A stretch of DNA of 32,630 nt from a virus (lineage: Duplodnaviria > Caudoviricetes): IMG/VR virus record IMGVR_UViG_3300020045_007716, positions 1-32,630 of that record, one strand, 5' to 3'. Below, one piece after another: positions 8,990-32,630 of the stretch. The translations under genes and the position numbers were made by a program. Position 1 is the stretch's first letter; each line of letters starts with the position of its first letter. The notes beneath the pieces are model-generated. The model did not search any database. It was not told where the DNA came from and was given only the letters and a program-made list of their open reading frames with translations.

Positions 8990-9250
8990 TTATCTTCTCA
9001 TTTGGTACGTCGAGTAATCATGGGTTTTCAAATCATACACTTCAATATTGACAGTGCCGTTGCCATTGTCTCGGATATTCTGAACTTCCACGTCGTGATA
9101 ATCCCGGTCGCCGTAATCATAGGCGCTGATGCTTCGGCCTTGTTGGACTTGCTCGTTGGGGTGTATCTCGATCGCGTCTGATGACTCGTCGTAACCGCTT
9201 AGGGCGAAGGCTTGGGTTGATAATAGGAGTAATGCAATTAGTGTTTTCAT
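8990..9250 (-). CDS. Small exported moron protein (DUF5334-like)
   Basis: Likely start MKTLIALLLLSTQAFA (signal peptide) with GAGG RBS; motif YDY....YHDVEVQ.I......V.IEVYD. Confidence 0.6.
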   Translation of the reverse strand: MKTLIALLLLSTQAFALSGYDESSDAIEIHPNEQVQQGRSISAYDYGDRDYHDVEVQNIRDNGNGTVNIEVYDLKTHDYSTYQMRR

Positions 9251-9356
9251 TTCAAAATCCTCAAAAATGTTCAATCCTAAAAAGGGTTGTGGCAGAGGGT
9301 AGGATTAATTCCCTCGTTCGGCCGCTAAACCTAGCCACAAAACTATTATACGCTTT

Positions 9357-19973: not shown

Positions 19974-20477
19974 TCAAGCTAATGGAATTATTTCTATACG
20001 GGTCAGTTTTTGGCTATCCTGGTCTGCTGCGCCATTGGCATTGTCATTGATTCCAAGATTACGGCGACGCAGGTTAATGATTTTTTCCGATATATCAACT
20101 ATGTTTTTAACGATCCTTGCTTTCTCACCCGTTGATTCCTCGCACATTAAAAACTCTTTGTTAAGCATATCCCTCATACCAACAAGGACTTGTATTTCCT
20201 TTGATTCTTGCTCTAAACATTCAGACTGTTTCTGCGCTATGGTAAGTATTAGTTCCGCTTCGTTAAGTTTGGTAAGTAATGTTAAGTTCTTGGCATTATA
20301 TAATTCCGTCGTTTTCTGCTTGATCTTTTCCGACAAATCCCTTGTCCATTCAAACTTATCCGCCCTTTGCTTTATAGCAACATGCGATATGCCATAAATA
20401 TCCGCCATTTCCCTAAGGGTTTTTGCCCCTATCCTGTAATCCCTTTCAACTGCCTCCCAATCAACTTTCTTAGCCAT
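19974..20477 (-). CDS. terS: Terminase small subunit
   Basis: HTH DWEAVERDYR.G..TLREMA..YGISH.AI..RA....W, immediately upstream of terL. Confidence 0.85.
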   Translation of the reverse strand: MAKKVDWEAVERDYRIGAKTLREMADIYGISHVAIKQRADKFEWTRDLSEKIKQKTTELYNAKNLTLLTKLNEAELILTIAQKQSECLEQESKEIQVLVGMRDMLNKEFLMCEESTGEKARIVKNIVDISEKIINLRRRNLGINDNANGAADQDSQKLTRIEIIPLA

Positions 20478-20640
20478 ACTTGTATTCCTTCTTTAATTCC
20501 CGATCCTGAAATAATGCGATAAAATCCAAATCTACATCATCCACAATAATATAAAAATGTTTAATTAAACAAACATCATTATACACAAAAATCAATATAT
20601 TTTCTTATCACCCGCAATCATTGCACCGTTATTCCAATGC

Positions 20641-20856
20641 TGTCAATATTTTTTACAAACGTAACTTACTGATTATATTGATAACTAACTATCTCATGCA
20701 ACATATAGTATACATGCGCTTAATATAACACAAGAATACTGTCAGGATTTTTTACAACTATAAGTTATTGATATTTCGTTTGTTTGTTTTTTACCTACTA
20801 CATATAGTATCCATGTAGCCGATCACATACTAGCGAGGTGTCAGGATTCTTTACAA
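20641..20856. repeat. Degenerate 99-bp-period tandem repeat (about 2.2 units)
   Basis: TGTCAR(T/G)ATTYTTTACAA at 20641, 20740 and 20839; ACATATAGTAT(A/C)CATG at 20701 and 20800. Confidence 0.85.
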
Positions 20857-20929
20857 TTTATGGCATTTAACCTGCCACGAAATGACAGATATTTTTTATC
20901 TTATTGATTTATATATTTTTATAATTAGT

Positions 20930-20945
20930 TGGCATTAGTAATGCA
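20930..20945 (+). promoter_or_regulatory. Sigma54-type -24/-12 promoter candidate
   Basis: TGGCATTAGTAATGCA has GG-N10-GC spacing; IHF-like TATCTTATTGATT about 30 bp upstream. Confidence 0.6.
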
Positions 20946-20987
20946 ATATACTAAGTGAAAGCAACTTTTAACTACACGGAGACGAAA

Positions 20988-21197
20988 ATGAACGACTATT
21001 CGGGATTAGAAACTTCTAACGAAATAATTTTAGCACTTGAGGAGCGGTATTCAGGCAAAGCATGCGATGAAGGCTCTGAATCCAATTGCGAATGGGCTGA
21101 TCCTAGCGACATGTCTGGAATTATTGCGCGGGCATGGGATCTTGCCGAACCTGAAACAAATAAACTGTTTTGGGGGGTGGAGTCATTCGAGAAATGA
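20988..21197 (+). CDS. Hypothetical acidic early protein
   Basis: GGAG RBS before MNDYSG. Confidence 0.6.
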   Translation: MNDYSGLETSNEIILALEERYSGKACDEGSESNCEWADPSDMSGIIARAWDLAEPETNKLFWGVESFEK

Positions 21198-21406
21198 AAC
21201 CAAAACTGTACGAAACAAAAATCAATGACGTCGGCCTAGTCATTCAATACAGCATGGATGCGGATGAATACGGGCCATTTTGTAACCTGATTAAAATTAC
21301 TGCAAATGATTCTGAAATCGACATTATGGATATATTAGACGATTTCGTTAAAATTGAAATCGAGGGGGCAATCGAGAAACAAGAAAAAACATGGAGGATA
21401 AAATGA
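21194..21406 (+). CDS. Hypothetical protein
   Basis: MKPKLYET..., ATGA-coupled. Confidence 0.6.
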   Translation: MKPKLYETKINDVGLVIQYSMDADEYGPFCNLIKITANDSEIDIMDILDDFVKIEIEGAIEKQEKTWRIK

Positions 21407-21549
21407 GATATTCAATAATCGCATATAAAGCTGTCAACGGATTAATTATAAAAGTCTGGTCAGCGGCCAATCTGACAGAAAAAGATATGCTCGAACTGAC
21501 TACCGGATCACCCTATATGATAGTAGTTGAGACAATGCTACACATATAG
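21403..21549 (+). CDS. Hypothetical protein (48 aa)
   Basis: GGAGG RBS, ATGA overlap; absent from the ORF track. Confidence 0.5.
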   Translation: MRYSIIAYKAVNGLIIKVWSAANLTEKDMLELTTGSPYMIVVETMLHI

Positions 21550-21578
21550 ATATTATAACACATTTGGAGTTAATAAAA

Positions 21579-21748
21579 TGAACCAAATCTATTTTTCAGC
21601 GCACCAGGTCGAAAAAGCCCGCCGTGCTACATTGGCCGCTCAAGAGTCTGAAATCGCCGCGTATGAACGCCGTGGCGCGTGGTATTTAGTCGGGATGGTT
21701 TTTGTTTCGGCTGTTATAACGATTACATTGATTGGATTTTTTAGTTAA
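21579..21748 (+). CDS. Small membrane protein
   Basis: GGAG RBS, MNQIYF..., C-terminal transmembrane helix; start coordinate approximate. Confidence 0.55.
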
Positions 21749-21760
21749 ACACCGTTGCCG

Positions 21761-21896
21761 GCGCGGTCATGTGTGCCGGATGCAGCCCAGCGGATTATGG
21801 CGGCATCATAGTAAAAATAACCGCGCACCATTGGCCGGGACATCCTGGATTAGTGCTCCAGGCATTCATAAATGAGCCTCCGACCCGGCGCAATGG
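21761..21896 (+). ncRNA. Candidate structured RNA
   Basis: GC-rich intergenic stretch with nested stems GCGCGGT/ACCGCGC, CCATTG-GCCGGG/CCCGGC-CAATGG and CCTGGA/TCCAGG. Confidence 0.35.
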
Positions 21897-21927
21897 AACC
21901 TATTTTACTATTTATCGAGGTAACAAA

Positions 21928-22062
21928 ATGAACGATGAAACAGAATGCTGCCTATGCGGCGAAACAATTGAAAATGGCAGTTATTGCGAGGATTGCCGGG
22001 ATTCTGGAGACCTGGAAGATATTTTGGAGGAATTATTCGGCACGGAATGCTTAGCCAATTAA
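21928..22062 (+). CDS. Small Zn-finger protein
   Basis: GAGG RBS, MNDETECCLCG..YCEDC. Confidence 0.55.
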   Translation: MNDETECCLCGETIENGSYCEDCRDSGDLEDILEELFGTECLAN

Positions 22063-22072
22063 GGGGGATTAA

Positions 22073-22504
22073 ATGCTAATATCAATGCGACAATTTGCAC
22101 GCATGGCCGGTATTAACCGGTACAGATTAGAGGTGATCTATGATATGCGACTGGTAGAGGGATTGCCGGATAGATTCAAAGGGGACTGGCGAGGATACAA
22201 AGTTTTTGATGACCTCGCCCAAGAATTTCTTGCAAAAAATGATCTCAAAACAGTTCGAACCACTTTTTACAAAAAACGCAATCCGAAGCCGAAAAAATCC
22301 AAATATACACCCAGTATGCTATTTTTGGCGTCTATGGTAGATCGAACATATCAACCAAAACCACACGAGCCAGTAACACCCTATCGAGAAACGCTCGAGG
22401 AGCTACACACAGAATATAATTCCGTGGTCAACACGGTAGATGGGTTTTCAACGTATAGCGGCGAATTTAAGGCTCCACCAACGCAAACTTTTAATTACTC
22501 ATGA
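22073..22504 (+). CDS. Hypothetical protein, possible N-terminal HTH
   Basis: LISMRQFARMAGINR. Confidence 0.6.
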   Translation: MLISMRQFARMAGINRYRLEVIYDMRLVEGLPDRFKGDWRGYKVFDDLAQEFLAKNDLKTVRTTFYKKRNPKPKKSKYTPSMLFLASMVDRTYQPKPHEPVTPYRETLEELHTEYNSVVNTVDGFSTYSGEFKAPPTQTFNYS

Positions 22505-22662
22505 AATCGGCATTAGTACGTGACGCGGAATGGTTGATAGAAAATGGCCTGAATAATATTGATCCGGCTAGGTTTTGCGACTGGGTGACCAGGCTGTGGC
22601 ATGACGGAATGTCGGAAAATGAGGCAAGGCTTTTTGTTTTGGAGGAAATGGTCAATGAGTAA
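22501..22662 (+). CDS. Hypothetical protein (53 aa)
   Basis: MKSALVRDAEW...; ATGA-coupled; absent from the ORF track. Confidence 0.55.
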   Translation: MKSALVRDAEWLIENGLNNIDPARFCDWVTRLWHDGMSENEARLFVLEEMVNE

Positions 22663-23068
22663 GAATTTAACAATGTGTAATAACAGTACATTAGACGCGA
22701 TGGTGACGGCATTATCTGTTTTGAGTAAAATATATTCGTCATCATCAGTCGATGATTATGGCAATGTAGTCATTGGTGTGAATTCGTATCCGGATTTTTT
22801 AAAAAAAATTGTGGTGGAGATGGAGAAGCTAAAGAGAATCATTGCGTCTTCGTTGCTAACCGGGCGCGGCCCTGCGAATGAACAAAACTCTCCCGCTGTT
22901 GCGGGTCCGGTTGAGCGCCGGGTTAGGCGTGAATTAACCGCAGAGCAGATATTAAAAGCCATCTACGCTTATGGATATACTGCCGACGACATAGTAAATA
23001 TTGGGATGGATGTCATCGTCGATATAACAACAGCAGTAGAACAAGCGCATGGAATATCAGGCGCCTAA
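22655..23068 (+). CDS. Hypothetical fusion protein that reads through an eroded attC-like site
   Basis: GGAGG RBS before MSKNLT; internal LTGRG...GPVERRVRR is encoded by site A; stop codon lies in site B. Confidence 0.6.
   Translation: MSKNLTMCNNSTLDAMVTALSVLSKIYSSSSVDDYGNVVIGVNSYPDFLKKIVVEMEKLKRIIASSLLTGRGPANEQNSPAVAGPVERRVRRELTAEQILKAIYAYGYTADDIVNIGMDVIVDITTAVEQAHGISGA
22855..22928 (-). repeat. attC-like site A (left core box lost)
   Basis: GCT-AACCGG...T-CCGGTT-G-AGC-GCCGG-GTTAGGC. Confidence 0.75.
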
Positions 23069-23149
23069 CGCAAAGCTAACCGGGCGCACTAATGACGACA
23101 ATTAAACAATACGCCGCTTCCAGCGCTCCGGTTGAGCGACAGGTTGTGC
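23063..23149 (-). repeat. attC-like site B
   Basis: GCCTAAC-N5-GCT-AACCGG-GCGC...GCGC-T-CCGGTT-G-AGC-N5-GTTGTGC. Confidence 0.85.
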
Positions 23150-23313
23150 GTGAACTTAAGCCATGCCCTTTTTGCGGCGGGCAAGCAAGGCTTTTTACTG
23201 ATGGTCTAACCACAATTATTTGTAAGGATTGCAATATGACAGTTAGCAACTTTGAGCGGTCAATAATAAAACTTACTGACCAGTGGAATAGACGAATTAG
23301 CCATGACGCATAA
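23092..23313 (+). CDS. Lar-family restriction alleviation protein (cassette B-C)
   Basis: ELKPCPFCGG...C.DC...WNRR signature. Confidence 0.8.
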   Translation: MTTIKQYAASSAPVERQVVRELKPCPFCGGQARLFTDGLTTIICKDCNMTVSNFERSIIKLTDQWNRRISHDA

Positions 23314-23393
23314 CGCAAAATTAACGCGCGCCCAGTTGGACGTTGAACGAAACCGCGATGCTGAAGGGCGTCGCGTTGAATGACGGGTTAGCC
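23308..23393 (-). repeat. attC-like site C
   Basis: GCATAAC-N5-ATT-AACGCG-CGCCC...GGGCG-T-CGCGTT-G-AAT-N5-GTTAGCC. Confidence 0.88.
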
Positions 23394-23425
23394 GTTTTAG
23401 CACTAAAAATATTTTGATTTAAGTA

Positions 23426-23453
23426 TTGACTTTAATCTAATTAGGTATATACT
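23426..23453 (+). promoter_or_regulatory. Sigma70 promoter inside cassette C-D
   Basis: TTGACT-N16-TATACT with CTAATTAG palindrome in the spacer. Confidence 0.6.
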
Positions 23454-23502
23454 ATATTCAGCGTTAAGGGATTGGCTCTTAACAATAATTGAGGATAGTA
23501 AA

Positions 23503-23820
23503 ATGAAAGCAATAAAAGTAACTTTAATACAAGATGCTTACTTAGATGATGATGGAGATTACACTGCATTAGCAATATTAAGTAAAAATGAAATTGATAA
23601 TACTGATGACGAAGAGTCAGGTTATCCGGTTAATTATGCAAAAGTGCGGTGGAATACAGTTGATGGATTTGATGGTGAAGACGAAAGCAACGCTTGTGAT
23701 TGGTCAAATCCAGAAGGCGTTAAATTTAACGGGCAATGGATAGCTGATAAATTTGAAGGTGTTAATAATTTTAAAAATATGAAATTTGAATACTTTAACA
23801 CTGACGGAAGTCGGCTTTAA
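23503..23820 (+). CDS. Acidic hypothetical protein (cassette C-D)
   Basis: GAGG RBS, 105 aa, DESNACDW motif. Confidence 0.7.
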   Translation: MKAIKVTLIQDAYLDDDGDYTALAILSKNEIDNTDDEESGYPVNYAKVRWNTVDGFDGEDESNACDWSNPEGVKFNGQWIADKFEGVNNFKNMKFEYFNTDGSRL

Positions 23821-24011
23821 TGTCAGGAGGAAAAAGGGAAGGAGCTGGCAGGAAGCCAGCTCACCCGCTTTTAAAAAAGGAAATGATAAGCCTGAAATTA
23901 CCGCGATGGTTAATTGATAGGCTTGACGAAGAACCGGAAAGCAGAGCAGTGATAATTGAAGCGGCTTTGGGCGAAAAACATGGCTGGACACCTCCGGATG
24001 TAGGCGGCTAA
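23820..24011 (+). CDS. Ribbon-helix-helix/CopG-like DNA-binding protein (cassette C-D)
   Basis: GGKREGAGRKP followed by ISLKLPRWLIDRL..SRAVIIEAAL; stop codon in site D. Confidence 0.7.
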   Translation: MSGGKREGAGRKPAHPLLKKEMISLKLPRWLIDRLDEEPESRAVIIEAALGEKHGWTPPDVGG

Positions 24012-24089
24012 CGCCTAATTAAGGCGGCGCACTTTGATTTTTAACAACACGGTGAGCTTGAAGCGCTCGCCTTGAATTAACTGTTAGGC
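24006..24089 (-). repeat. attC-like site D
   Basis: GGCTAAC-N5-ATT-AAGGCG-GCGC...GCGC-T-CGCCTT-G-AAT-N5-GTTAGGC. Confidence 0.88.
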
Positions 24090-24101
24090 ATTGGAGATAA
24101 C

Positions 24102-24404
24102 ATGAGCGGAAGAATACTAACATGCGTTTATTGCGGCCACGAATATCCGCAGGACACCCCGGCGCACGGCAGCGAAGTGCTGACCGAGCACATAAAGATT
24201 TGCGAGCGTCACCCAATGCGCAAAGCCGATGCCGATATTACTCTGCTGCGCTCTGCGCTGTCCGGATTGATCGGTGCGGACACCGAAGCCGAATTGAGGC
24301 AAATGGAAGCCGCGATGCGCCTGCTGCCAGCGCCGGATGCAGACAAGGCGGTTTCCATCAACGCGATTCATGCGCTGCTGGCGACTATGCCGCCTAACGC
24401 TTAG
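24102..24404 (+). CDS. Zn-binding hypothetical protein (cassette D-E)
   Basis: GGAG RBS; CVYC...H...C..HP; visibly GC-richer than its neighbours; ends PPNA* across site E. Confidence 0.75.
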   Translation: MSGRILTCVYCGHEYPQDTPAHGSEVLTEHIKICERHPMRKADADITLLRSALSGLIGADTEAELRQMEAAMRLLPAPDADKAVSINAIHALLATMPPNA

Positions 24405-24428
24405 ATATACACCCAATAGGTGTATAAC
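24392..24428 (-). other. Terminal site E of array 1 (attI-like or degenerate attC)
   Basis: GCCTAAC-N5 followed by short palindrome TATACACC-CAATA-GGTGTATA; no right GTT box. Confidence 0.5.
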
Positions 24429-24458
24429 AAATTATTATGTTTTTTGTACTGGATCAAA

Positions 24459-24683
24459 ATGAATGAAATAGTCACTTGCGGCCAATGCCGTCATTTTATC
24501 CGGCCTGAACCCAGATTCGAACCGAACAGCATGGGCGCTTGTAGTCTTTATGACGACTGGAAAGCCAAATGGGGCGGTAAAACTATCCCCATTCAGGCCG
24601 ATAATCGGGTTAATGCTGAGCTGGGGAACAAGATGTTTTTTACGGATATTGAGCGGTATTGTAAAAAATTTGTTGCAAAATAA
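24459..24683 (+). CDS. Cys-containing hypothetical protein
   Basis: MNEIVTCGQCRHF...GAC...RYC..F. Confidence 0.65.
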   Translation: MNEIVTCGQCRHFIRPEPRFEPNSMGACSLYDDWKAKWGGKTIPIQADNRVNAELGNKMFFTDIERYCKKFVAK

Positions 24684-24708
24684 AAAAATGCTATATAATA
24701 AAATCATT

Positions 24709-24799
24709 CCGGGCTGGTAACCTGGAGTGCCTGTGGGAGTTGATAGAGAGTATCAACAGTTTTTTAGGTCTCACGGGCCCCTAAAAGACTACCAAGCCC
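24709..24799 (+). ncRNA. Candidate small structured RNA
   Basis: Nested stems GGGCTGGTA/TACCAAGCCC, GCCTGTGGGA/TCTCACGGGC and GTTGATA/TATCAAC; TATAAT upstream and terminator downstream. Confidence 0.4.
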
Positions 24800-24820
24800 A
24801 TAGTACACAATCAAATTACT

Positions 24821-24859
24821 AAAAAGGCTTGGTTATCGAAAGATTCCAGGCCTTTTTTT
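24821..24859 (+). terminator. Intrinsic terminator, possibly bidirectional
   Basis: AAAAAGGCTTGG...CCAGGCCTTTTTTT. Confidence 0.7.
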
Positions 24860-25301
24860 ATGCCTTAAATTCTTCAATTCAGACTTGGAAATTTTAAAAT
24901 AAAAAACTCAGCAAACTTCAGGGGTAACCGGGTTCGGTGCTGGGTGATAGCCGGGAAGAATGAGCAAGCCCGGGGCGTTGGGGAAAAGGGTGAAAATATT
25001 TTACTGAGTATCATGAAAATTCTGGCCGCCCCCTTAATTGTAGGGTCGGAACACACAGAAAAGATGTTTGTAGTGGATAGTAAAAAAGATTACACCTAGG
25101 CTAGAACGCGCTTGGACTCCGAACATGGGGGGTTTAAGTCTGGCCAGTATGAGCGTAACCATTATCAGCGACTCATGCCTTGTGATATGACGACTAAAGT
25201 CCTATTGCCTGTATTTCCGAGGTGGAAAGCTACAATAATATTGTGCTTCCGCCTTGGGATAAATTTGCTTGCTCAAATCTAACACAGAACCTTTGCCTAT
25301 C

Positions 25302-25499
25302 ATGAAAAGAAGCTATCAAGTCATAGAAAAACCAAGAACATTCAAGAAAAAAAACAGGGTTTGGTTGACAGTCCCATACGAAGAAAAAGACATTGTCAAA
25401 AGTTTAGGTGCAAAATGGGACTCAAAAAAGAAAAAATGGTATGCAGGCGACATGCAAACAGAGAAACAAGTTCAGAAATGGATCCCATATCAACCATAA
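25302..25499 (+). CDS. DUF5710-like domain protein
   Basis: WLTVPYEEKD.VK.LGAKWD..KKKWY. Confidence 0.75.
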   Translation: MKRSYQVIEKPRTFKKKNRVWLTVPYEEKDIVKSLGAKWDSKKKKWYAGDMQTEKQVQKWIPYQP

Positions 25500-25504
25500 A
25501 TTAT

Positions 25505-25657
25505 ATGATCCCACAACCAAACACACCCGCCCACAAAGCTTATCAGAAAGGGATTGAGGCTAAAAAACAAGGACTGCCAGAAAAAGCAAACCCATACATA
25601 CTCGGAAAAGTAGCTGCGTTGTCTTGTTGGTGGCTATTAGGATATAAATCATGCTAA
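25505..25657 (+). CDS. Rmf/CrpP-fold small protein
   Basis: AYQKG.EA...G......NPY........W.LGY pattern, as in the ribosome modulation factor fold. Confidence 0.6.
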   Translation: MIPQPNTPAHKAYQKGIEAKKQGLPEKANPYILGKVAALSCWWLLGYKSC

Positions 25658-27126
25658 CACTTAGGCCCTATCAAACTGAATCAATCCAGGCACTACGCGA
25701 AGGGATCAAAGCCGGCCACCGCTGCCAGATTCTATGCGCCGCTACCGGATCAGGAAAATCGGTAGTCGCTACGGAACTTTTACGGTGCGCTGGACAGAAA
25801 GACAAGAAATGCCTTTTCATAGTTGACCGCCGAGTTTTAGTCAGTCAATTTTCCGGACACCTGCAAAACTACCGTATCCCGCACGGCATAATCATGAAAG
25901 GCCATGGCAGGACAAAAGACAATATTCAGGTTGCTTCAGCTCAGACCATGGAAAAAATGGACTCCTGGCCGGCCTTTGACCTGATTATAATTGACGAAAT
26001 CCACGCTTGTTTTCGTAAAAGCATAAAAAAACTGATAGAAATGAATTCGGAATCTTCAGTGCTTGGACTCACCGCAACCCCACTGACTAAAGGGTTGGGC
26101 AATGTCTTTTCTAACGTAGTCAACGTCATAACAATGCGTGAGCTGGTCGATCAAGGATTTCTGGTTCCATTCAAGGTTTTTGTAGCGCATGAGATTGACA
26201 CGGCAGGCCTTGAGACGGCCACCACTGGAGAATACAAACCGGATCAACTGGAAGAGAGGGCAAAATTGATCGTTGGGGACGTGGTTCGTGATTACCTTAA
26301 ACTTTCACAGGAGCAAAACACCGGCAAAACCATTTGTTTTAGTTCTGGAGTTGAGCATGGCGTTGAGTTGGCAATGGAGTTTGCTAACCACGGCAAAAAC
26401 TTTGTATCCATATCGTACCGGGATGACGAAGATTACAAAAAAGAAGTTCTGGACGAATTTGCAAAACCGGATTCGAGTCTGCACGGCGTCATATCGACCG
26501 ACATTTTAACCCGTGGTTTTGATCAAACCGACATTGATCATGTCATTTTAGCCCGGCCACTGAAAAAAAGCCTTGCACTTCATATCCAAATGATCGGAAG
26601 GGGCGCACGTTCCCACACAGGGAAAACCCACTGTATCATTCAAGACCATAGCGGAAATTACCTGTTATTCAAGTACAGATTCGACGAAATCTACAACAAC
26701 GGCATTCACAAACTGCATGACGGCATGGAAAAGCCGCCTTCTATACCAAGTGAAAAAGAGAAAAAAGAGTCTTCATGCCCGTCTTGCGGCTTGATTTGGT
26801 CGAAAGGCTCGACGCTTTGTCCTAATTGCGGCTTTGTCTTTGTCAAAAAATCAAACGTAGTGCAGTTACATGGCGTTATGACCGAGTTAAATGGGACGGT
26901 TGAAAAAGCGGCGGTAGAAAAATATTCATCCCAGTACAAAGAGAAATTTTATCAACAGTTACTTGGTTACGCGCGGCAACACCGATATGCGGATGGCTGG
27001 GCCTACCACCAGTACATAAAGAAATTTTCAATCGCTCCCCCCTGGAAAAAACTTCCTTTAGAACCTGGAATTAACGTAATTAACTACGTTAAAAGCCGCC
27101 AAATAGCTTACGCAAAAAGAAAATGA
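25651..27126 (+). CDS. SF2 DEAH helicase (RadD/YejH-like) with C-terminal Zn finger
   Basis: LRPYQ, ATGSGKS, DEIH, GLTATP, LTRGFD, QMIGRG.R, CPSC..CPNC. Confidence 0.92.
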   Translation: MLTLRPYQTESIQALREGIKAGHRCQILCAATGSGKSVVATELLRCAGQKDKKCLFIVDRRVLVSQFSGHLQNYRIPHGIIMKGHGRTKDNIQVASAQTMEKMDSWPAFDLIIIDEIHACFRKSIKKLIEMNSESSVLGLTATPLTKGLGNVFSNVVNVITMRELVDQGFLVPFKVFVAHEIDTAGLETATTGEYKPDQLEERAKLIVGDVVRDYLKLSQEQNTGKTICFSSGVEHGVELAMEFANHGKNFVSISYRDDEDYKKEVLDEFAKPDSSLHGVISTDILTRGFDQTDIDHVILARPLKKSLALHIQMIGRGARSHTGKTHCIIQDHSGNYLLFKYRFDEIYNNGIHKLHDGMEKPPSIPSEKEKKESSCPSCGLIWSKGSTLCPNCGFVFVKKSNVVQLHGVMTELNGTVEKAAVEKYSSQYKEKFYQQLLGYARQHRYADGWAYHQYIKKFSIAPPWKKLPLEPGINVINYVKSRQIAYAKRK

Positions 27127-27578
27127 CTACTCTATTCTTAAGAAAAATCCACAACGTTTTTATCCCAGCCGACGCAATAACGCAGGCTGAAATGGAAACT
27201 ATGCACGATTGCGAATATAAAGCGGAAGTGACAAAACCGCGCAATTATTCATTCCTCAAAAAATTCTTTGCTCTAGTGAAAGTGGCGTTCGATGCGTGGG
27301 AAGGGCCGATAACAGAATATAAGGGTATGCCCGTAGAAAAGAATCTGGAGCGATTCAGGAAGGATCTATTGATTATGGCTGGGTATGGGTACCCTGTTGT
27401 AAATATCGCCGGGAAAGTCGAATTTGAGGCCAAATCGATAGCATTCGGAAGCATGGACGAAACAGAATTTGGTGAATTGTACAGTAAAGTGATTGACGTG
27501 ATTTTATCCAATGTGTTGAATCACTACACAAGAGACGATTTAGATTCGATGGTCAACAATATATTGAGGTTTAGCTAA
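27123..27578 (+). CDS. DUF1367-family protein
   Basis: PRNY.F.KKFFAL...AFD.W, FRK.L.I.AG, KSIAF.SMDE.EF..LY. Confidence 0.8.
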   Translation: MTTLFLRKIHNVFIPADAITQAEMETMHDCEYKAEVTKPRNYSFLKKFFALVKVAFDAWEGPITEYKGMPVEKNLERFRKDLLIMAGYGYPVVNIAGKVEFEAKSIAFGSMDETEFGELYSKVIDVILSNVLNHYTRDDLDSMVNNILRFS

Positions 27579-27763
27579 TGAAATATGCAGTGATGGTTAA
27601 AAAGTCCAGGCAAAAACACATATGCACCCCAGGTGAAATATGGGTAAAGGACAAAGATTCAATTTACTACGTCAACATAGACGAGCGCGGCGTATGGGAT
27701 ACCATAGAGGAAGCAGAGCAGGCAAAATTATATGACGATGAAATAGTGTTTGAGGTTAGCTAA
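27578..27763 (+). CDS. Hypothetical protein flanked by direct repeats
   Basis: 61 aa, TAATG-coupled at both ends. Confidence 0.6.
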   Translation: MKYAVMVKKSRQKHICTPGEIWVKDKDSIYYVNIDERGVWDTIEEAEQAKLYDDEIVFEVS

Positions 27764-27936
27764 TGAATATATTACGAAAAAATATGACCCTGATTGAATA
27801 TTTGCGTGCCTACAATCAATGGAGAAGGGGTAAAAATTGTATAAATTTCCACCCTAAAGAAGTTTGCCTTGTTATCGACGAAGTTATAGAAATCTTGGAG
27901 TCTCAAGATGCAAAAAAGAAAACCATATCGGAATAA
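27763..27936 (+). CDS. Hypothetical protein (57 aa)
   Basis: LRAYNQWRRG...PKEV..VID; TAATG-coupled; absent from the ORF track. Confidence 0.55.
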   Translation: MNILRKNMTLIEYLRAYNQWRRGKNCINFHPKEVCLVIDEVIEILESQDAKKKTISE

Positions 27937-28216
27937 AAAAATTCTGGATCATGCCAAAGGGCAGGAATGTCAAATCAGGCTCCCAGGTTGCCTACACAAT
28001 ACCGAAACAACAGTGGCCGCGCATATACATGCCTATGAATTCGGGCATGGTATGGGGCAAAAAGCGGACGATTACGCGATTGCCTATGTTTGCCACAATT
28101 GCCATTTAATATTAGACGGTTGGCATGATTTTGATATTGACTGGGTGGAGGGGATGTTTCACCTGGCCAATACCCGAACAATTGGGATTTTGTTCAGGGA
28201 CGGCATTATAAAATGA
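27908..28216 (+). CDS. DUF1364/YbcO-like putative nuclease
   Basis: AKGQECQIRLPG..H..ETTV.AH...GMGQK.DD.....C..CH..LDG. Confidence 0.85.
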   Translation: MQKRKPYRNKKILDHAKGQECQIRLPGCLHNTETTVAAHIHAYEFGHGMGQKADDYAIAYVCHNCHLILDGWHDFDIDWVEGMFHLANTRTIGILFRDGIIK

Positions 28217-28878
28217 GGTTTGACCAAACCGACGAAATGACACGGCGCATACAGCGCGAATTAAAACAAATAGAACAGGACAAGGAGGGCGAAAAAAAAC
28301 AGGATGACGCAATAAAAAGGGCATGGACGATCATTGCAAACGCCACCAGACAGCATCACGCCTATCTCGAATACAAAGGGTTTCCGGATCAAATCTGGAT
28401 CGTACACGAAAACAAACTTGTTGTGCCCATGTACCGTCCTACCCTTGACGGTAAGGGGAAATATTTAACAGGGCTCCAATTAATAGACGAATGGGGTGGA
28501 AAGAAATTTCTCTATGGCCAGAAAACAACGGGCGCTTATTACCGCATAGGATATGGACCTATCAATATTTTATGCGAAGGGCTGGCAACCGGACTCAGTA
28601 TTCGAAAAACGGCCGCTAGCGCAATCCAAGGGTTGTTTTCGATATGGATATGCTTTTCTGCTGCAAATATAAAAAATGTCGCTAAATATATCCATTCAGG
28701 TTTTGTAATGGCCGACCATGACGGATCAGGCGTAGGCGAAAAAGTAGCGCGGGATATTGGCTGGAATTATTGGTTATCCCCGAATGTAGGTGAAGATTTC
28801 AACGATTTTTGCCGTGGAGTGAGCCTATTTACCGCGTGTCAGGTAATTAAAAAAATGGCGATGAAGCACAAAATATAA
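28213..28878 (+). CDS. TOPRIM-domain primase-like protein
   Basis: H.YL..KG, LQLID..G.KKFL.G, CEG.ATGLSI, FSA.N, ADHD, DFND. Confidence 0.85.
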   Translation: MRFDQTDEMTRRIQRELKQIEQDKEGEKKQDDAIKRAWTIIANATRQHHAYLEYKGFPDQIWIVHENKLVVPMYRPTLDGKGKYLTGLQLIDEWGGKKFLYGQKTTGAYYRIGYGPINILCEGLATGLSIRKTAASAIQGLFSIWICFSAANIKNVAKYIHSGFVMADHDGSGVGEKVARDIGWNYWLSPNVGEDFNDFCRGVSLFTACQVIKKMAMKHKI

Positions 28879-28886
28879 AATACCGC

Positions 28887-28915
28887 TTGACATTGGTATA
28901 AATTTATAATACTAT
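28887..28915 (+). promoter_or_regulatory. Sigma70 promoter with palindromic operator
   Basis: TTGACA-N17-TACTAT; spacer holds the perfect palindrome TATAAATTTATA (28897-28908). Confidence 0.7.
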
Positions 28916-28943
28916 AGACACACGATATTAAACAGGAGGGGAA

Positions 28944-29102
28944 ATGGTTGAGTTCACAGACGAAGAAATGAAGATGCTTAACACCATATTTTGTGAAAAC
29001 TATGTCTATGAAAACGTAGACTACCAAGACGAAAACTGTCCGTGGAGAGCACTTTACACAAAGGTAATGGAATATATACCGGAGTCGAAAGATGAAGAGT
29101 GA
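28944..29102 (+). CDS. Hypothetical protein (52 aa)
   Basis: AGGAGG RBS, MVEFTDEE...; absent from the ORF track. Confidence 0.6.
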   Translation: MVEFTDEEMKMLNTIFCENYVYENVDYQDENCPWRALYTKVMEYIPESKDEE

Positions 29103-29679
29103 AAGCATAGCCGAATTGGCTAAAGCACTAAGTAAGGCGCAAGGCGCTTTTGATCATGCAAAAAAGGACACTGATAATCCTTTTTTTAAAAGCAGGTATG
29201 CCGACCTTGCAAATGTTATTGATGCGGCAAAAAAACCGTTAGCAGATAACGGACTTGCGGTAAGCCAGATTATTGTTGCCGATGAAAATGGAAACGTCAA
29301 TTTGGAAACGCTGTTAATGCACGCGTCAGGGGAATGGATTAGTGGTACTTATCCGATTCGCCCCGTTAAAACTGATCCTCAATCCATGGGTTCAGCGATA
29401 ACTTACGCAAGACGCTATTCTTTTTCTGCCATTACCGGAATAGCGGCTGATGATGATGACGGCAATGAAGCCAGCAAGCCAAAACCTGATAGACAAAGAG
29501 TTGATAAGCCAATTGAGAAATCATATTGGCCACAAGATAAGTTCAACGAAAAAAAGGAAGAATGGAAAGTAAAAGTTCTGTCCGGCGAACGAACAGTTGA
29601 GCAATTATTGACTGTTATGCAAGTTCGCCATTTGTTTACTGAGTCACAAATCTTAGAAATTCAATCATGGGAACGATAA
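29092..29679 (+). CDS. erf: ERF-family single-strand annealing protein
   Basis: NPFFKSRYADL, L.H.SGEW, PQ..GSAITYARRY, G.A.DDDDGN. Confidence 0.92.
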   Translation: MKSESIAELAKALSKAQGAFDHAKKDTDNPFFKSRYADLANVIDAAKKPLADNGLAVSQIIVADENGNVNLETLLMHASGEWISGTYPIRPVKTDPQSMGSAITYARRYSFSAITGIAADDDDGNEASKPKPDRQRVDKPIEKSYWPQDKFNEKKEEWKVKVLSGERTVEQLLTVMQVRHLFTESQILEIQSWER

Positions 29680-30851
29680 CACAAGACCATAAGCTGATGG
29701 TATCGGCGTCGAATTGTCATAGGATAATGACGTGCCTGGATAAAGATTATCTTCCGCAAGGCGCTATATCATATATCAGTGACATGTTTAATCTGTCCGA
29801 TGATGATTTTGAAAATACATATATGTCGGCGGACATGAACAACGGTGTTGAAAAAGAGCCGGAAGCAATAGAAGAATTAGCGGCTCATTTGTGGCTTGAC
29901 ATAAAATTTACTGGACATGCCCAAAAAAGGCTTTACGCCGGGAAAGATTATTATGATTTTTTGTCCGCCCTGACTGATGGGATTATATCCTGTAGTGACG
30001 TAGCTTATACAGTCGAGGTTAAATGTTTAAACAGAGAAAATCATCAATCTGTTTGCGAAAATGTTAGGCGCGCAGACGATCTTAAAAAGTATGATTATCC
30101 AAAATATTGTCAAGTTCAAGCACAAATACTGTGCGCTGAAAATTCATTTAAGAAAAAAACGTTAGGTATCATTGCATTTTACAATGAAAATTGTAAAGAA
30201 CCGCTGCGAATTATATGGATTGACCCCGATCAAGAATGGCGAGATAGACTCCATTCCCGCCTAGGCTTAGCTAAAAAACTCTACCTGGAAATACAGGGCG
30301 AGCCACAAAAACAGGTAATCCCATTAGCGCCCGATAACGAAATTGCAATAACGCCGGATATAGTTAGCTTGCTTCTTGGTGATCCGAAGTTTTTAATGGA
30401 AATGGTTTATGAGCATTTTGGCGTATCGATAGTTGACGGTCATTATACTGGCGGCGATATAATTGATTGCAGTACCAAGAAAGGCCGCGACCAGGCTATC
30501 AAGTTACGATCCAAAATAACCAAGGTCAGGACTGGCGCTGTTTCAATATCAAAGAAGCTTGTAGAAGAGTATAAGCTCAAATGCAAACAGGAGTTGGAAT
30601 TCCGAAAAACGATTGAGGCCGACTGTAAAGCACTCAGTGATTATCTATGCCAAGCCCTGAACACATGGGAAGCTGAGCAAAAGAAAAATGTTGAAGTGAA
30701 AAAGAAAGAAATTGAAAAAGAAGTCAAAGCAGATAAGGATGGCGAAAAAATTATATGGGTACTTGACACCATAAAAAATATGTTCGAGGCCGGTAAAATT
30801 GGCATAGACGAGGCGTTAATGATGGCATATCAAGCAGGATTGGACACATGA
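29667..30851 (+). CDS. YqaJ/lambda-exonuclease-like protein with C-terminal coiled coil
   Basis: SAS...IM, G.E.EP.A, SA.TDG, VEVKC, Y.QVQ.Q; adjacent to erf. Confidence 0.75.
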   Translation: MGTITQDHKLMVSASNCHRIMTCLDKDYLPQGAISYISDMFNLSDDDFENTYMSADMNNGVEKEPEAIEELAAHLWLDIKFTGHAQKRLYAGKDYYDFLSALTDGIISCSDVAYTVEVKCLNRENHQSVCENVRRADDLKKYDYPKYCQVQAQILCAENSFKKKTLGIIAFYNENCKEPLRIIWIDPDQEWRDRLHSRLGLAKKLYLEIQGEPQKQVIPLAPDNEIAITPDIVSLLLGDPKFLMEMVYEHFGVSIVDGHYTGGDIIDCSTKKGRDQAIKLRSKITKVRTGAVSISKKLVEEYKLKCKQELEFRKTIEADCKALSDYLCQALNTWEAEQKKNVEVKKKEIEKEVKADKDGEKIIWVLDTIKNMFEAGKIGIDEALMMAYQAGLDT

Positions 30852-31003
30852 AAACAGACAAATCGAAATCTTTACACATAAACGAAAAAACCCATAATCG
30901 GCTAAAGCTGTACAGTATTCAAGCCGGTAAAACTATCGGTAAGTTGGTGGATGAATTTATCGTTTTTTGCCTTGATCAACTTGAGCTTGATAATAAAAAA
31001 TAA
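30848..31003 (+). CDS. Ribbon-helix-helix/Arc-like regulator (51 aa)
   Basis: KSLHINEKTHNRLKLYSIQAGKTIGKLVDEFI; absent from the ORF track. Confidence 0.6.
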   Translation: MKTDKSKSLHINEKTHNRLKLYSIQAGKTIGKLVDEFIVFCLDQLELDNKK

Positions 31004-31039
31004 AATTACGTCATGAACATTCTATGGATTTTGAAATTT

Positions 31040-31056
31040 AATGACGGGTTATACAA
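31040..31056 (-). repeat. Remnant right end of an attC-like site (F0)
   Basis: AAT-GACGG-GTTATACAA; complementary to TTGTATAAC at 31184-31192. Confidence 0.55.
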
Positions 31057-31191
31057 ATGGCTATTGATTTTAACGATTGGGAATACTACAAAAATACCCT
31101 AAAACCTGTTTTTGGGAACCGAAAAAACTGGTATAGATTTTGTATTATCATGCATAGATTGAGGATGAAAATAATGTTTGGTATTGTATAA
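31057..31191 (+). CDS. Hypothetical protein (44 aa, cassette F0-F)
   Basis: MAIDFNDWEYY...; TAA falls inside the left box of site F. Confidence 0.5.
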   Translation: MAIDFNDWEYYKNTLKPVFGNRKNWYRFCIIMHRLRMKIMFGIV

Positions 31192-31274
31192 CGCAGAGCT
31201 AACCGGGCGCGGCACGGAAAGCTGAGCAATGAATGAAGATTGTGGCCGCGCTCCGGTTGAGCGTAGGGTTATAC
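31186..31274 (-). repeat. attC-like site F
   Basis: GTATAAC-N5-GCT-AACCGG-GCGCGGC...GCCGCGC-T-CCGGTT-G-AGC-N5-GTTATAC. Confidence 0.88.
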
Positions 31275-31510
31275 AATATTTATGGGGAAACATAATGAAA
31301 ATTAAAAAAATTGAGAGTCAAAGCCGCCGCGATTTTTACGCAATTTACACATGTGAGCATTGCGGACATGAAGAACGCGGAAGCGGGTATGACGATGACC
31401 ATTTCCATAGGAATGTTATTCCAGCGATGAAATGTAAAAAGTGCAGCAAGACGGCTGCCGAAGATTACAGGCCGATAGGGACAAAGTATGCTGCGCATGA
31501 AGTTGTATAA
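31229..31510 (+). CDS. Zn-ribbon hypothetical protein (cassette F-G); alternative start at 31295
   Basis: RRDF.A.Y.CEHCG...GYDD..FH..VIP.MKC..C; stop codon in site G. Confidence 0.75.
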   Translation: MNEDCGRAPVERRVIQYLWGNIMKIKKIESQSRRDFYAIYTCEHCGHEERGSGYDDDHFHRNVIPAMKCKKCSKTAAEDYRPIGTKYAAHEVV

Positions 31511-31588
31511 CGCAAAAGTAAAGCGCCCGTGAACGAAGCCAAAAAATGCGCTAACGGTAAGCGGGTCGCGTTGACTGACGGGTTATGC
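31505..31588 (-). repeat. attC-like site G
   Basis: GTATAAC-N5-AGT-AAAGCG-CCCG...CGGG-T-CGCGTT-G-ACT-N5-GTTATGC. Confidence 0.82.
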
Positions 31589-31768
31589 TGCATAGAATTA
31601 ACAAAGCCAATGATCGACGCTTATAACGAGCAATTGGCTGAAATATTGGCTTTCCATGCCGCAAATTTCAACGTAAGAAAGGCAATTGACGAACAAATGA
31701 AAAAACTGGCTTTTGACGCTTACACCCAGGGTGTTTTAGATGGGCAAAAATTAGTGGTTAAAACATGA
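31529..31768 (+). CDS. Hypothetical protein (cassette G-H)
   Basis: GTG start inside site G; ATGA-coupled to the next ORF. Confidence 0.55.
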   Translation: MNEAKKCANGKRVALTDGLCCIELTKPMIDAYNEQLAEILAFHAANFNVRKAIDEQMKKLAFDAYTQGVLDGQKLVVKT

Positions 31769-31917
31769 CCGCGTTTTTTTGGTTTTTAATTGGGGTAAAT
31801 GTCGGTTATTTATTAACAGGCTTTAAATTCGTGCGAAATGCGAATGAAATACAAAGAATTGAGTTTTTCGGCAAACTTTACAAGGTTTTGCACGATAAAG
31901 ATTGGCATGGGACATAA
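31765..31917 (+). CDS. Small membrane protein (50 aa, cassette G-H)
   Basis: MTAFFWFLIGVNVGYLL...; TAA inside the left box of site H. Confidence 0.55.
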   Translation: MTAFFWFLIGVNVGYLLTGFKFVRNANEIQRIEFFGKLYKVLHDKDWHGT

Positions 31918-31980
31918 CGCTGGAGGTGAGGCGACTGGCGCGGCTTTATGCGACAGGTCGCCTCGACCGTAATGTTATGA
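31912..31980 (-). repeat. attC-like site H
   Basis: ACATAAC-N6-GGT-GAGGCG...T-CGCCTC-G-ACC-N5-GTTATGA. Confidence 0.8.
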
Positions 31981-32110
31981 ACGGAGGTTGATATGGAGCG
32001 GGTTTTTTTGGAGAACCCGCATGGCGTGCATGGGTACAGATTTTCCGCACTGGTTGTCGGGCGGCAACCAGTTGTATAGCACCTTACGTTGTTAGATTGT
32101 GGTTATACAG

Positions 32111-32248
32111 ATGATTGACACTCGGTTTTGCATGAGATGCAAGGGTAATTTTATATACGCATACAGCGGTATATTAAAAAAAATGGTTTGCTCTAACTGT
32201 CAGCGCGCCGCGTTGGATGCTGGTCGTAAATTGAGCAAAAACGATTGA
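32111..32248 (+). CDS. Small Zn-finger protein (45 aa)
   Basis: CMRC...CSNC; absent from the ORF track. Confidence 0.55.
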   Translation: MIDTRFCMRCKGNFIYAYSGILKKMVCSNCQRAALDAGRKLSKND

Positions 32249-32273
32249 TGTATAACAGGTAAAATTGTAAACA

Positions 32274-32630
32274 ATGACTATATTATCGATTGACCCAGGA
32301 ATAAAAACAGGAGCTGCCGTATTCGACAATGGGAAATGTATGTTTTTTAAAACATTGCGCGGGCCGATCTCGGCAATACATTTCATTAGATCGAATAACC
32401 CTGTTTTAGTCATATGCGAGGATAGCCGGCTTCAATCACATGTTTTTACGGCTCCAAAACTCAACGCACAGGCGAGACTTAAAGTAGCTCGGAATATAGG
32501 CATGGTTGATATGTGCTGTTACCTGATACAAGTAGAATGTGAGCGAATGCAAATAGATTACATGGCCGTATCACCAAAAGGCAAAGGGATAAAGCTTGAT
32601 GCCAAGGGTTTAACAAAATTAACCGGTATT
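32274..32630 (+). CDS. RuvC-like Holliday junction resolvase/RNase H-fold nuclease, 3'-truncated
   Basis: MTILSIDPGIKTGAAVF...VICED; open to the window end. Confidence 0.75.
   Translation, partial: MTILSIDPGIKTGAAVFDNGKCMFFKTLRGPISAIHFIRSNNPVLVICEDSRLQSHVFTAPKLNAQARLKVARNIGMVDMCCYLIQVECERMQIDYMAVSPKGKGIKLDAKGLTKLTGI

Follow-up and report, generated by a model that had tools for sequence, protein, structure and literature searches.

Integrase-less attC arrays in the early region of an uncultured phage: mirror-image gene polarity and kinship with methanotroph integron sites

attC-type sites in the early region

The subject of this study is a set of hairpin repeats in IMG/VR record IMGVR_UViG_3300020045_007716, a virus sequence (Duplodnaviria; Caudoviricetes) of 32,630 nucleotides (nt) that is referred to below, at its full length, as the window and that represents a partial genome (CheckV completeness estimate of 47%). 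Its structural module occupies positions 1-20477 on the minus strand and encodes the small and large terminase, portal, major head protein, and virion proteins, and its early/replication module, on the plus strand from ~20950 onward, encodes a helicase, NinB/Orf, an HNH endonuclease, a primase, an Erf-like annealing protein, and a resolvase-like protein. Two accessory regions of the early module (arrays 1 and 2) contain seven sites of the attC type known from integron cassettes, all on the plus strand, with small genes between them that also lie on the plus strand and that include matches to the Lar family and to phrog_14808. No candidate for the integron integrase IntI (TIGR02249) was found in the window.

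By megablast, positions 20400-32630 matched none of 50,697 phage records. A metagenomic relative, G006 (loci L006 and L031), is ~85% identical to the window over 27120-31004 and 80% identical over 32262-32629; it is 39.7 kb long, has direct terminal repeats, and is rated 100% complete. No tRNA was detected in the window, and an Rfam search of it at E<=1 gave no attC-like family, merely two weak unrelated matches.

The sites were located with a covariance model, R1, built from an alignment of five window sites and 19 sites from other loci (24 in total) and applied without filters to the full window. Five strong sites (B, C, D, F, and G) scored 62.8-74.9 bits, followed by the lower-scoring sites A and H, and the structural module (1-20400) had no R1 match with E<0.1. 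Reverse-strand scores were 8.9-24.3 bits, the strand difference at B, C, D, and F amounting to 38.5-59.9 bits; no minus-strand match was listed for G. The coordinates of all sites and of the genes around them are collected in Table 1.

Read on the plus strand, a site begins with a left box (RYYYAAC), a 6-nt spacer, and a GC-rich stem of 12-15 bp, continues through a variable loop, and returns in a 3' arm composed of a bulged T, six paired bases, a bulged G, two paired bases, a 6-nt spacer, and the right box GTTRRRY. The bulged T and G, 6 nt apart, are found on the plus-strand 3' arm of B, C, D, F, and G; site B, for instance, combines the left box GCCTAAC and the L stem CTAACCGGGCGC with both bulges and the right box GTTGTGC. 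The fold and the R1 strand scores thus agree with a sequence-only reading of this DNA, which had assigned the extrahelical G and T to the right arm of the sense strand. The AAC and GTT of the boxes are invariant in 24 of 24 aligned sites. Both boxes are present in B, C, D, F, G, and H, whereas A has no left box and E no left half; a full counterpart of site A, with the left box CATAAC, occurs in a relative (L014). The sites are 69-89 nt long and form same-strand arrays with neighbors at most 1.3 kb apart.

Pairing in the aligned cells reached 81.8%, compared with 72.4+/-1.2% in shuffled alignments (0 of 500 reached the observed value) and 30-53% when the partner was slid. Covariation was likewise higher than in shuffles (0.271 versus 0.120; 0 of 500), with double-sided changes in 8 of the 12 L-stem pairs. 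Folding energy relative to shuffles was strong only for F and D (z-scores in Table 1), and the case for attC therefore rests on covariation and conserved geometry and not on stability. Based on these results, we concluded that the repeats show every structural hallmark of attC. The term CALIN, for a cluster of attC sites without an integrase, is taken along with IntegronFinder from the text of PMC9892861, which sets a threshold of at least two sites within 3 kb. With four sites in 22846-24089 and three in 31186-31980, all on the plus strand, both arrays are CALIN. Neither is a complete integron, as this partial-genome window holds no intI, and attI was not searched for. Among ten viral records examined for IntI, none had a match above the cut-off, and three had weak generic tyrosine-recombinase matches only.

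Table 1. Sites, genes, and other elements of the two arrays
Feature	Position	Strand	Remarks
attC site A	22846-22928	+	R1 24.8 bits; stem and right R box, left R box missing; within open reading frame (ORF) 22601-23068
attC site B	23063-23149	+	R1 71.2 bits, E 1e-15; minus strand 11.3 bits; fold
Lar-family restriction-alleviation gene	23146-23313	+	Predicted start GTG 23146 in right R box; longest frame from ATG 23092 in the loop; TIGR03655, PF14354
attC site C	23308-23393	+	R1 64.3 bits; TAA of left box CATAAC is the Lar gene stop codon
Promoter-like site TTGACT, 16 nt, TATACT	23426-23453	+	10/12 consensus positions; in the C unit
Two small ORFs of the C unit, 105 and 63 amino acids (aa)	23503-24011	+	ORF calls
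attC site D	24006-24089	+	R1 62.8 bits; fold z -2.57
100-aa ORF after site D	24102-24404	+	GGAG 6 nt before ATG; no family match
Orphan left box GCCTAAC	24392-24398	+	Right end of array 1; backbone shared with G006 resumes ~7 nt later (alignment)
Half-site E	31037-31055	+	Right arm and right box GTTATAC only; left end of array 2
o44, 44-aa ORF	31057-31191	+	Ends in TAA of site F left box
attC site F	31186-31274	+	R1 74.9 bits; minus strand 24.3 bits; fold z -6.09
phrog_14808 gene, 71 aa	31295-31510	+	GGGG 7 nt before ATG; ends in TAA of site G left box
attC site G	31505-31588	+	R1 65.5 bits
Two small ORFs after site G	31529 or 31611 to 31768; 31765-31917	+	Second ends in TAA of site H left box
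attC site H	31912-31980	+	R1 36.0 bits, E 6e-7; shorter, divergent type
Orphan left box TGTATAAC	32249-32256	+	Right end of array 2; complementary to right box of half-site E

Strand assignment and host site family

The recombinogenic strand was assigned with an annotated class 1 integron from a plasmid (L184), fetched using a Methylobacter integron integrase as query. R1, which was built only from window and Methylococcales sites, found the aadA1 attC of this integron at 46.8 bits opposite aadA1 and at 8.8 bits on the gene strand. Because the model matches this attC opposite its gene, the model strand is the classical bottom strand, which in the window is the plus strand. Integron integrases recombine the bottom strand ~1000-fold better, according to the text of PMC13108822. 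The early genes of the window therefore have the canonical bottom strand as their sense strand. A canonical cassette carries its ORF on the top strand with attC downstream, but here both family-assigned genes, Lar-like and phrog_14808, are on the bottom strand. Two further claims of the sequence-only reading hold on these grounds: the ORFs are reversed relative to canonical integron polarity, as the aadA1 control and the family-supported genes on the plus strand demonstrate, and in each unit the hairpin stands upstream of its gene, as follows from the strand assignment and from the unit comparisons given below.

Sites A, B, and F share a stem motif that recurs exactly in 33 viral loci and in at least 137 bacterial genome loci. 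Among the matches listed, 64 of 79 bear Methylococcales names (Methylobacter, Methylovulum, Methylomonas, Crenothrix, and others), and the host repeats form arrays of up to 8 near-identical copies in ~7 kb. An integron integrase above the NCBIfam curated cut-off was found in three of the five repeat-bearing genomes searched. One locus (L062) has intI on the minus strand and then seven minus-strand sites; another (L175) has intI on the plus strand, preceded by two plus-strand sites of the window C/G type. Sites and intI are therefore on the same strand in both, as in the class 1 control. Part of the site F loop, GGCACGGAAAGCTGA, is identical to that of some Methylobacter array repeats. Judged by these sequence matches, the window sites belong to the attC family of methanotroph sedentary chromosomal integrons, and Methylococcales methanotrophs are the likely hosts, which amounts to a host prediction for these uncultured phages.

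Gene polarity in viral and host arrays

In the usual view, an integron cassette is a gene without a promoter of its own that has its attC behind it and is transcribed from the promoter of the integron. The polarity of genes relative to their sites was compared between viral and host arrays, with sites across loci located by a sequence profile of the same 24-site alignment, which recovers six of the seven window sites. Within a locus, the sites were on one strand in 73 of 74 cases. The longest ORF between consecutive sites was on the bottom strand in 25 viral intervals, opposite in 3, and unclear in 20; the corresponding host counts were 4, 70, and 28. The window intervals were unclear or opposite in this test, and the antisense frame of the Lar gene is seven codons longer than the gene itself; for these intervals, family matches are decisive.

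A second test asked which of the two longest ORFs of each interval belongs to a known family. In the viral loci, PHROGs matches at E<=1e-5 were obtained for 14 of 49 bottom-strand ORFs and for none of 37 opposite ORFs; they include two DNA methyltransferases, two Lar-like proteins, a PAPS reductase, and a DHH phosphoesterase. A Pfam search of the viral ORFs added no opposite-strand match. In the host arrays, 166 of the 197 ORFs reached 60 aa, and 150 of those were searched against Pfam; 27 of the 28 supported ORFs were opposite the bottom strand, the remaining one being an IS110 transposase. Supported genes are thus on the bottom strand in 14 of 14 viral cases versus 1 of 28 host cases (Fisher p = 2.8e-10). 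Nucleotide clustering of the viral loci after masking of the sites gave 25 groups, 8 of which contribute the supported genes, so the result does not reflect one lineage counted repeatedly. The host exception, an IS110-family transposase gene at 6513-7841 (minus strand) of locus L060, lies on the bottom strand within a Methylobacter cassette array.

Polarity was also followed within single genomes. The complete phage G014 carries sites of both polarities, each matching the local gene direction: two minus-strand sites flank a PHROG-supported minus-strand gene in a leftward module with an Erf-like gene, and five plus-strand sites lie within the rightward module. Two further phages are isolates whose attC sites had been assayed by Qi et al. 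(PMC9892861). In Pseudoalteromonas phage H101, four R1 matches between genes are on the annotated coding strand (18.9-25.2 versus 3.6-11.8 bits), one of them corresponding to the PH101_attC1 oligonucleotide of PMC9892861. In Tetrasphaera phage TJE1, three R1 matches are opposite the genes, at their 3' ends (19.8-31.1 versus 3.2-13.6 bits). Mirror polarity is thus a strong tendency in this set, present in one published phage and not universal. The earlier reading had named random orientation across homologous arrays as an outcome that would speak against it; the viral and host counts of supported genes show that orientation is not random. Its proposal of a distinct phage cassette class is not supported as regards an arrangement limited to phages: a mirrored, promoter-bearing unit is shared with a Methylobacter contig (L059), and TJE1 is canonical.

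Cargo genes and translation starts

The Lar-like gene (gene B) matches TIGR03655 with 40.6 bits (cut-off 39.6), positions 1-54 of 55 of the profile aligning to residues 22-68 of the long frame that opens in the hairpin, and PF14354 with 45.7 bits (cut-off 28.6), positions 2-57 aligning to residues 21-68; on this sequence evidence, it is assigned to the Lar family. The profile of phrog_14808 matches residues 23-90 of the long frame at site F with its positions 1-68 of 71. The 63-aa ORF of the C unit, which ends in the TAA of the site D left box, is 87% identical to an ORF of L059. The C unit ORFs gave only a weak BrnA-antitoxin-like match (E 9.7e-4, below the cut-off), and a toxin-antitoxin identity of this unit is putative. 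The first ORF after site G has no homologue among the compared loci and no family match.

In the sequence-only reading, genes started inside their own sites, at 23092, 31229, and 31529, and the hairpin supplied translation initiation and the N-terminus. ATG or GTG letters do exist in these loops and arms, but they are just the first starts of the longest frames, and for B and F the family profiles start at or after the right box; a general role of the hairpin in initiation is therefore not borne out. In gene F, profile position 1 falls on residue 23, which is ATG 31295, 21 nt past the site and preceded by a GGGG Shine-Dalgarno sequence. In gene B, where residue 22 corresponds to position 1 of TIGR03655 and residue 21 to position 2 of PF14354, GTG 23146 (the RRR of the right box GTTGTGC) is the only start codon just before the profiles begin, and the predicted gene most likely starts there, in the outer box and not in the hairpin. 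Past sites C, D, and H, the genes start after 109, 12, and ~13 nt, with GGAG or GGAGG before the starts for D and H. The recurring PVER(R/Q)V peptide to which the reading had drawn attention exists as a frame, PVERRV being the conserved arm CCGGTTGAGCG read in one of its two open frames, but it is merely the translation of that arm; the PVER-coding arm and the ATGA motif of the loop also occur in host arrays with genes on the other strand. By these profile positions, the hairpins probably do not supply the start codons of the genes.

Frames that run through a site were nevertheless observed. In locus L030 (6365-6470), the sole ATG of a Lar-like frame is in an attC loop, 6 nt after AAGGAG, and the conserved PCPxCG motif begins directly after the right box. 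In the window, a 155-aa frame at 22601-23068 passes through site A and consists of an upstream part that is absent from G006 and a 46-aa C-terminal cargo; the same 46-aa cargo stands alone in L014, with its ATG in the right box. The window frame is possibly a cassette fusion or a dead cassette. Loop starts may thus occur in single cases such as the site A read-through and L030.

Cassette units and array junctions

At all six full window sites, the TAA within the left box is the stop codon of the preceding ORF. A left-box stop was rejected as a general rule, since in the viral arrays the in-box frame stayed open over 40 codons or more in 16 of 44 cases, no enrichment relative to 12 and 11 for the other frames; on the top strand of host arrays, it was open in 59 of 140 cases compared with 22 and 15.

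The extent of a unit was read from cargo shared between arrays. The window and L014 share 87% identical cargo with the same upstream stem and partly the same loop, and the homology runs to the next left box and spacer, where hairpins of different types follow. Between the window and L059, site C, the TTGACT-16-TATACT site, and the 63-aa ORF are conserved to the next left box, and then the hairpins differ. In host duplicates, the upstream sites have an identity of 0.92-0.93 versus 0.73 for the downstream sites. The search for shared cargo covered 153 units and yielded only seven pairs, of which one was phage-phage and three host pairs were uninformative. In two comparisons, then, cargo travels with its upstream hairpin. 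Such hairpin-then-cargo units are what cleavage in the bottom-strand left box would predict.

Positions 1-4680 of L059, a Methylobacter metagenome contig, contain RusA-like and UDG-like cassettes in canonical orientation, plus one mirrored, promoter-bearing unit. The mirrored unit is 82-85% identical to window positions 23312-24013, a similarity that points directly to exchange of the phage with host arrays.

Between conserved flanks, array 2 spans 1,258 nt in the window (o44, F, phrog_14808, G, and H) and 840 nt with other genes in G006, and at the position of window array 1, G006 has no R1 match; the arrays are thus variable between relatives that are ~85% identical. A homologue of o44, 84% identical, is located in a different accessory region of G006, preceded by the same half-site as E. 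The right-hand boundary of each array is an orphan left box, after which comes backbone sequence, as left-box cleavage would predict. At the position of orphan box 32249-32256, L031 carries GCGTACAAC, and backbone homology resumes at 32262. A short perfect hairpin (24405-24428; 8-bp stem TATACACC/GGTGTATA) stands right after the orphan box of array 1 and is kept in G006; it ends in a second TGTATAAC box. At 6285-6350 of L031, an attC retains its left arm, and its right arm is reduced to GGCG, joined directly to TTAGGC.

Proposed recombination by a host integrase and alternative explanations

We consider it likely that the repeats are genuine attC sites forming two integrase-less arrays in the early-gene region, with recombination predicted to be carried out by the IntI of the host. 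The host enzyme would cleave the folded plus strand in the left box (RYYYAA^C), so that the mobile unit, in the sense direction, would comprise C, the hairpin, GTTRRRY, the gene or genes, and RYYYAA, with the hairpin upstream of its cargo. Expression of the cargo would depend on a promoter within the cassette or on read-through of transcripts begun at phage early promoters, with ordinary translation starts at or after the right box. Under mirror polarity, the recombinogenic strand would be the non-template strand, which is the displaced sense strand during transcription; if replication proceeds outward from ~20.6-20.9 kb, it would be the lagging-strand template too. Bottom-strand cleavage and excision from the lagging-strand template are described in the texts of PMC13108822 and PMC9892861, and for Vibrio cholerae the former gives an excision frequency of 3 x 10^-2 in the lagging-template state versus <7 x 10^-5 for natively oriented cassettes. 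Mirroring would also act as insulation, since a canonical cassette arriving from a host would be antisense to phage transcription. Accessibility, insulation, or selection on the hairpin at the RNA level may each be the reason for mirror polarity, and all three fit the data.

Several observations weigh against this interpretation. On the structural side, the number of pairs with double changes was not beyond that in shuffles (71 of 500), and the folding energies of B, C, and G were like those of shuffles (z -0.86, -0.80, and -1.55). As no IntI was found in the window or in the ten viral records, any integrase must be that of a host which is itself predicted. Irregularities were seen at several junctions: site A is without its left box and spacer; half-site E is common to the window and L031 with different cargo after it, which left-box cleavage alone does not explain; and the right arm of the L031 site is deleted. 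Such left ends suggest that some events were illegitimate or homologous and not site-specific, and no recombination event was seen at nucleotide resolution in the comparisons of the window with its relatives. Regarding polarity, TJE1 is canonical, so that the mirror rule is a bias and not a law. The ORF calls are longest-ORF heuristics, with 35 of the 49 sense ORFs lacking family support, and the B-C interval of the window is itself one of the three viral intervals called opposite, a crude call that the family matches overrule. A coding-strand test at the level of the flanks was noisy (15 same, 5 opposite, and 14 mixed for viral loci; 11, 42, and 81 for host loci). The replication argument depends on an origin at ~20.6-20.9 kb that is only a candidate, and GC skew is confounded with the coding strand.

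The main rival, which we regard as unlikely, is homologous recombination by an Erf-type phage system: the repeats would be short homology linkers at which the phage Erf-like, NinB/Orf, and RuvC-like resolvase proteins shuffle modules, the attC shape being inherited from host DNA. In its favor, proteins of these three kinds are encoded in the window, IntI was found neither there nor in any of the ten viral records, and there are irregular junctions such as A, E, and the truncated L031 site. Linkers of this kind leave unexplained, however, why boxes, bulges, and compensatory stem changes are intact at host-like scores and why polarity follows gene direction; moreover, in two comparisons homology stops at the next left box and not in the arms, a distinction of low resolution because the boxes are conserved. 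We give still less weight to the view that the hairpins are RNA elements of early transcripts, acting in processing, attenuation, or translational control, with their polarity selected on the mRNA. On the sense strand, the sites do separate small genes that are transcribed together; they fold as RNA too (-45.3 kcal/mol, z -6.1 for F), and in gene B place the start within the closing helix. But no T-run follows the stems, none of six terminator-like scan matches coincides with a plus-strand site stem, and two such matches on the minus strand fall inside the loops of sites A and B; the RNA energies of site B and of the L030 site are like those of shuffles, the sequences are near-copies of host array sites with the loops included, and TJE1 has the opposite polarity.

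The remaining two explanations appear highly improbable. One is the phage cassette class already discussed, in which the hairpin provides the start codon and an N-terminal peptide. It draws on the frames that open in the loops of sites B, F, and G and continue across the arm, on the 155-aa frame through site A, on the AAGGAG and loop ATG of the Lar-like frame in L030, and on the recurrence of ATGA in loops; it is opposed by the profiles, which begin at residue 23 (F) or 21-22 (B) of the long frames, by the Shine-Dalgarno sequence and ATG that gene F and the gene after D have of their own beyond the site, and by the presence of the ATGA loop motif and the PVER arm in host arrays with genes on the other strand. 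By a rough estimate, three loop starts in seven sites appear unremarkable, since a stop occurs in one of three right-arm frames and loops of ~40 nt often hold ATG, GTG, or TTG. The other, no more credible, holds that the sites are passive relics, that is, host integron DNA acquired by illegitimate recombination, neutral and decaying. Half-sites and truncated sites do exist, and the capsid gene was found in just 1 of 151 host-family genomes, with no sign of a regular integrated state. Against neutrality, five sites have host-like scores of 62.8-74.9 bits, ~25 unrelated clusters of viral sequences contain such arrays, it is precisely in the array regions that close relatives differ in cargo, and capture in random orientation would not yield 14 of 14 genes on one strand. 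Integration of the phage into a host array via attC was considered separately and found no support, the capsid match in the 1 of 151 host-family genomes having 30% identity.

Within the favored interpretation of genuine attC sites used by a host integrase, a bolder extension can be offered only tentatively, and we think it rather doubtful: phages of integron-bearing bacteria would keep a mirror-image cassette pool with the recombinogenic bottom strand as the sense and lagging-template strand, in which host IntI shuffles phage accessory genes (often anti-restriction genes such as Lar and orphan methylases) at a high rate during infection, host cassettes landing there, including those with defence genes, would stay antisense and silent, and polarity would act as a barrier between the pools. 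If this were true, integrons would mediate a two-sided gene exchange between bacterial and viral cassette pools.

Other features of the window

The terminase and early modules are separated by an AT-rich divergent intergenic region (20560-20930; GC 0.34) with three 18-nt repeats at 20641, 20740, and 20839, a period of exactly 99 nt. The minimum of the cumulative GC skew, which is confounded with the coding strand, also falls here, and the stretch is a candidate for a replication origin or for the control of early genes. A stretch of ~580 nt at 24690-25270 has no convincing ORF and gave no tRNA or Rfam family; within it, a T-run follows a stem near 24820-24860, and positions 24915-25050 are GC-rich. 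In the structural module, a sub-threshold Rfam match to the int-alpA RNA (9272-9341, minus strand; 32.1 bits, gathering score 35.8, E 0.005) sits in the gap between ORF 8990-9274 (minus strand) and the internal virion protein gene 9357-11051 (minus strand).

Relation to known integron systems

To our knowledge, phage attC clusters have so far been reported only as a curiosity or as a possible route for moving bacterial cassettes. Mirror polarity in phages and canonical polarity in hosts that share the same site family would mean selection or a mechanical constraint acting in phages, and would mean that phages have a cassette pool of their own, which in this case carries anti-restriction cargo. 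The natural "inverted" system would also allow the strand rules known from Vibrio arrays (leading versus lagging template) to be tested.

The basic phenomenon has been published: according to its text, Qi et al. 2023 (PMC9892861) described attC clusters in virulent phages that lack IntI and carry DNA methyltransferase cargo, and five of the six phage sites tested there were IntI1 substrates. The arrays analyzed here resemble those phages in their attC clusters, in the lack of IntI, and, among the viral loci, in methylase cargo. They extend that work as it stands in the text by tying the sites to a named host site family and by comparing polarity between phages and hosts; the text of PMC9892861, figures aside, makes no mention of gene polarity relative to the bottom strand. 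In the literature, leaving aside the figures and most supplements of that paper, no paper was found to place the cassette genes of phages on the bottom strand of attC, and the tie to a host family, the phage-host polarity contrast, the polarity switch within one genome, and the hairpin-upstream unit were likewise not found in print.

Compared with integron attC sites and CALIN, the window sites have the same R boxes, imperfect L stem, T and G bulges on one strand, unpaired spacer, and variable loop. They are unlike integron cassettes in that the window genes are on the bottom strand with the site before the gene, and in that no intI accompanies them in the window or in the ten viral records. 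Reverse-oriented, promoter-bearing cassettes, for example those with toxin-antitoxin genes, are described for sedentary chromosomal integrons in the text of PMC13108822, and the C unit, with its promoter-like site and bottom-strand genes, is like them and is also found in the otherwise canonical Methylobacter array L059. Among host genes, however, the reverse orientation was limited to 1 of 28 supported genes, an insertion sequence, whereas mirrored units are the rule in the phage arrays.

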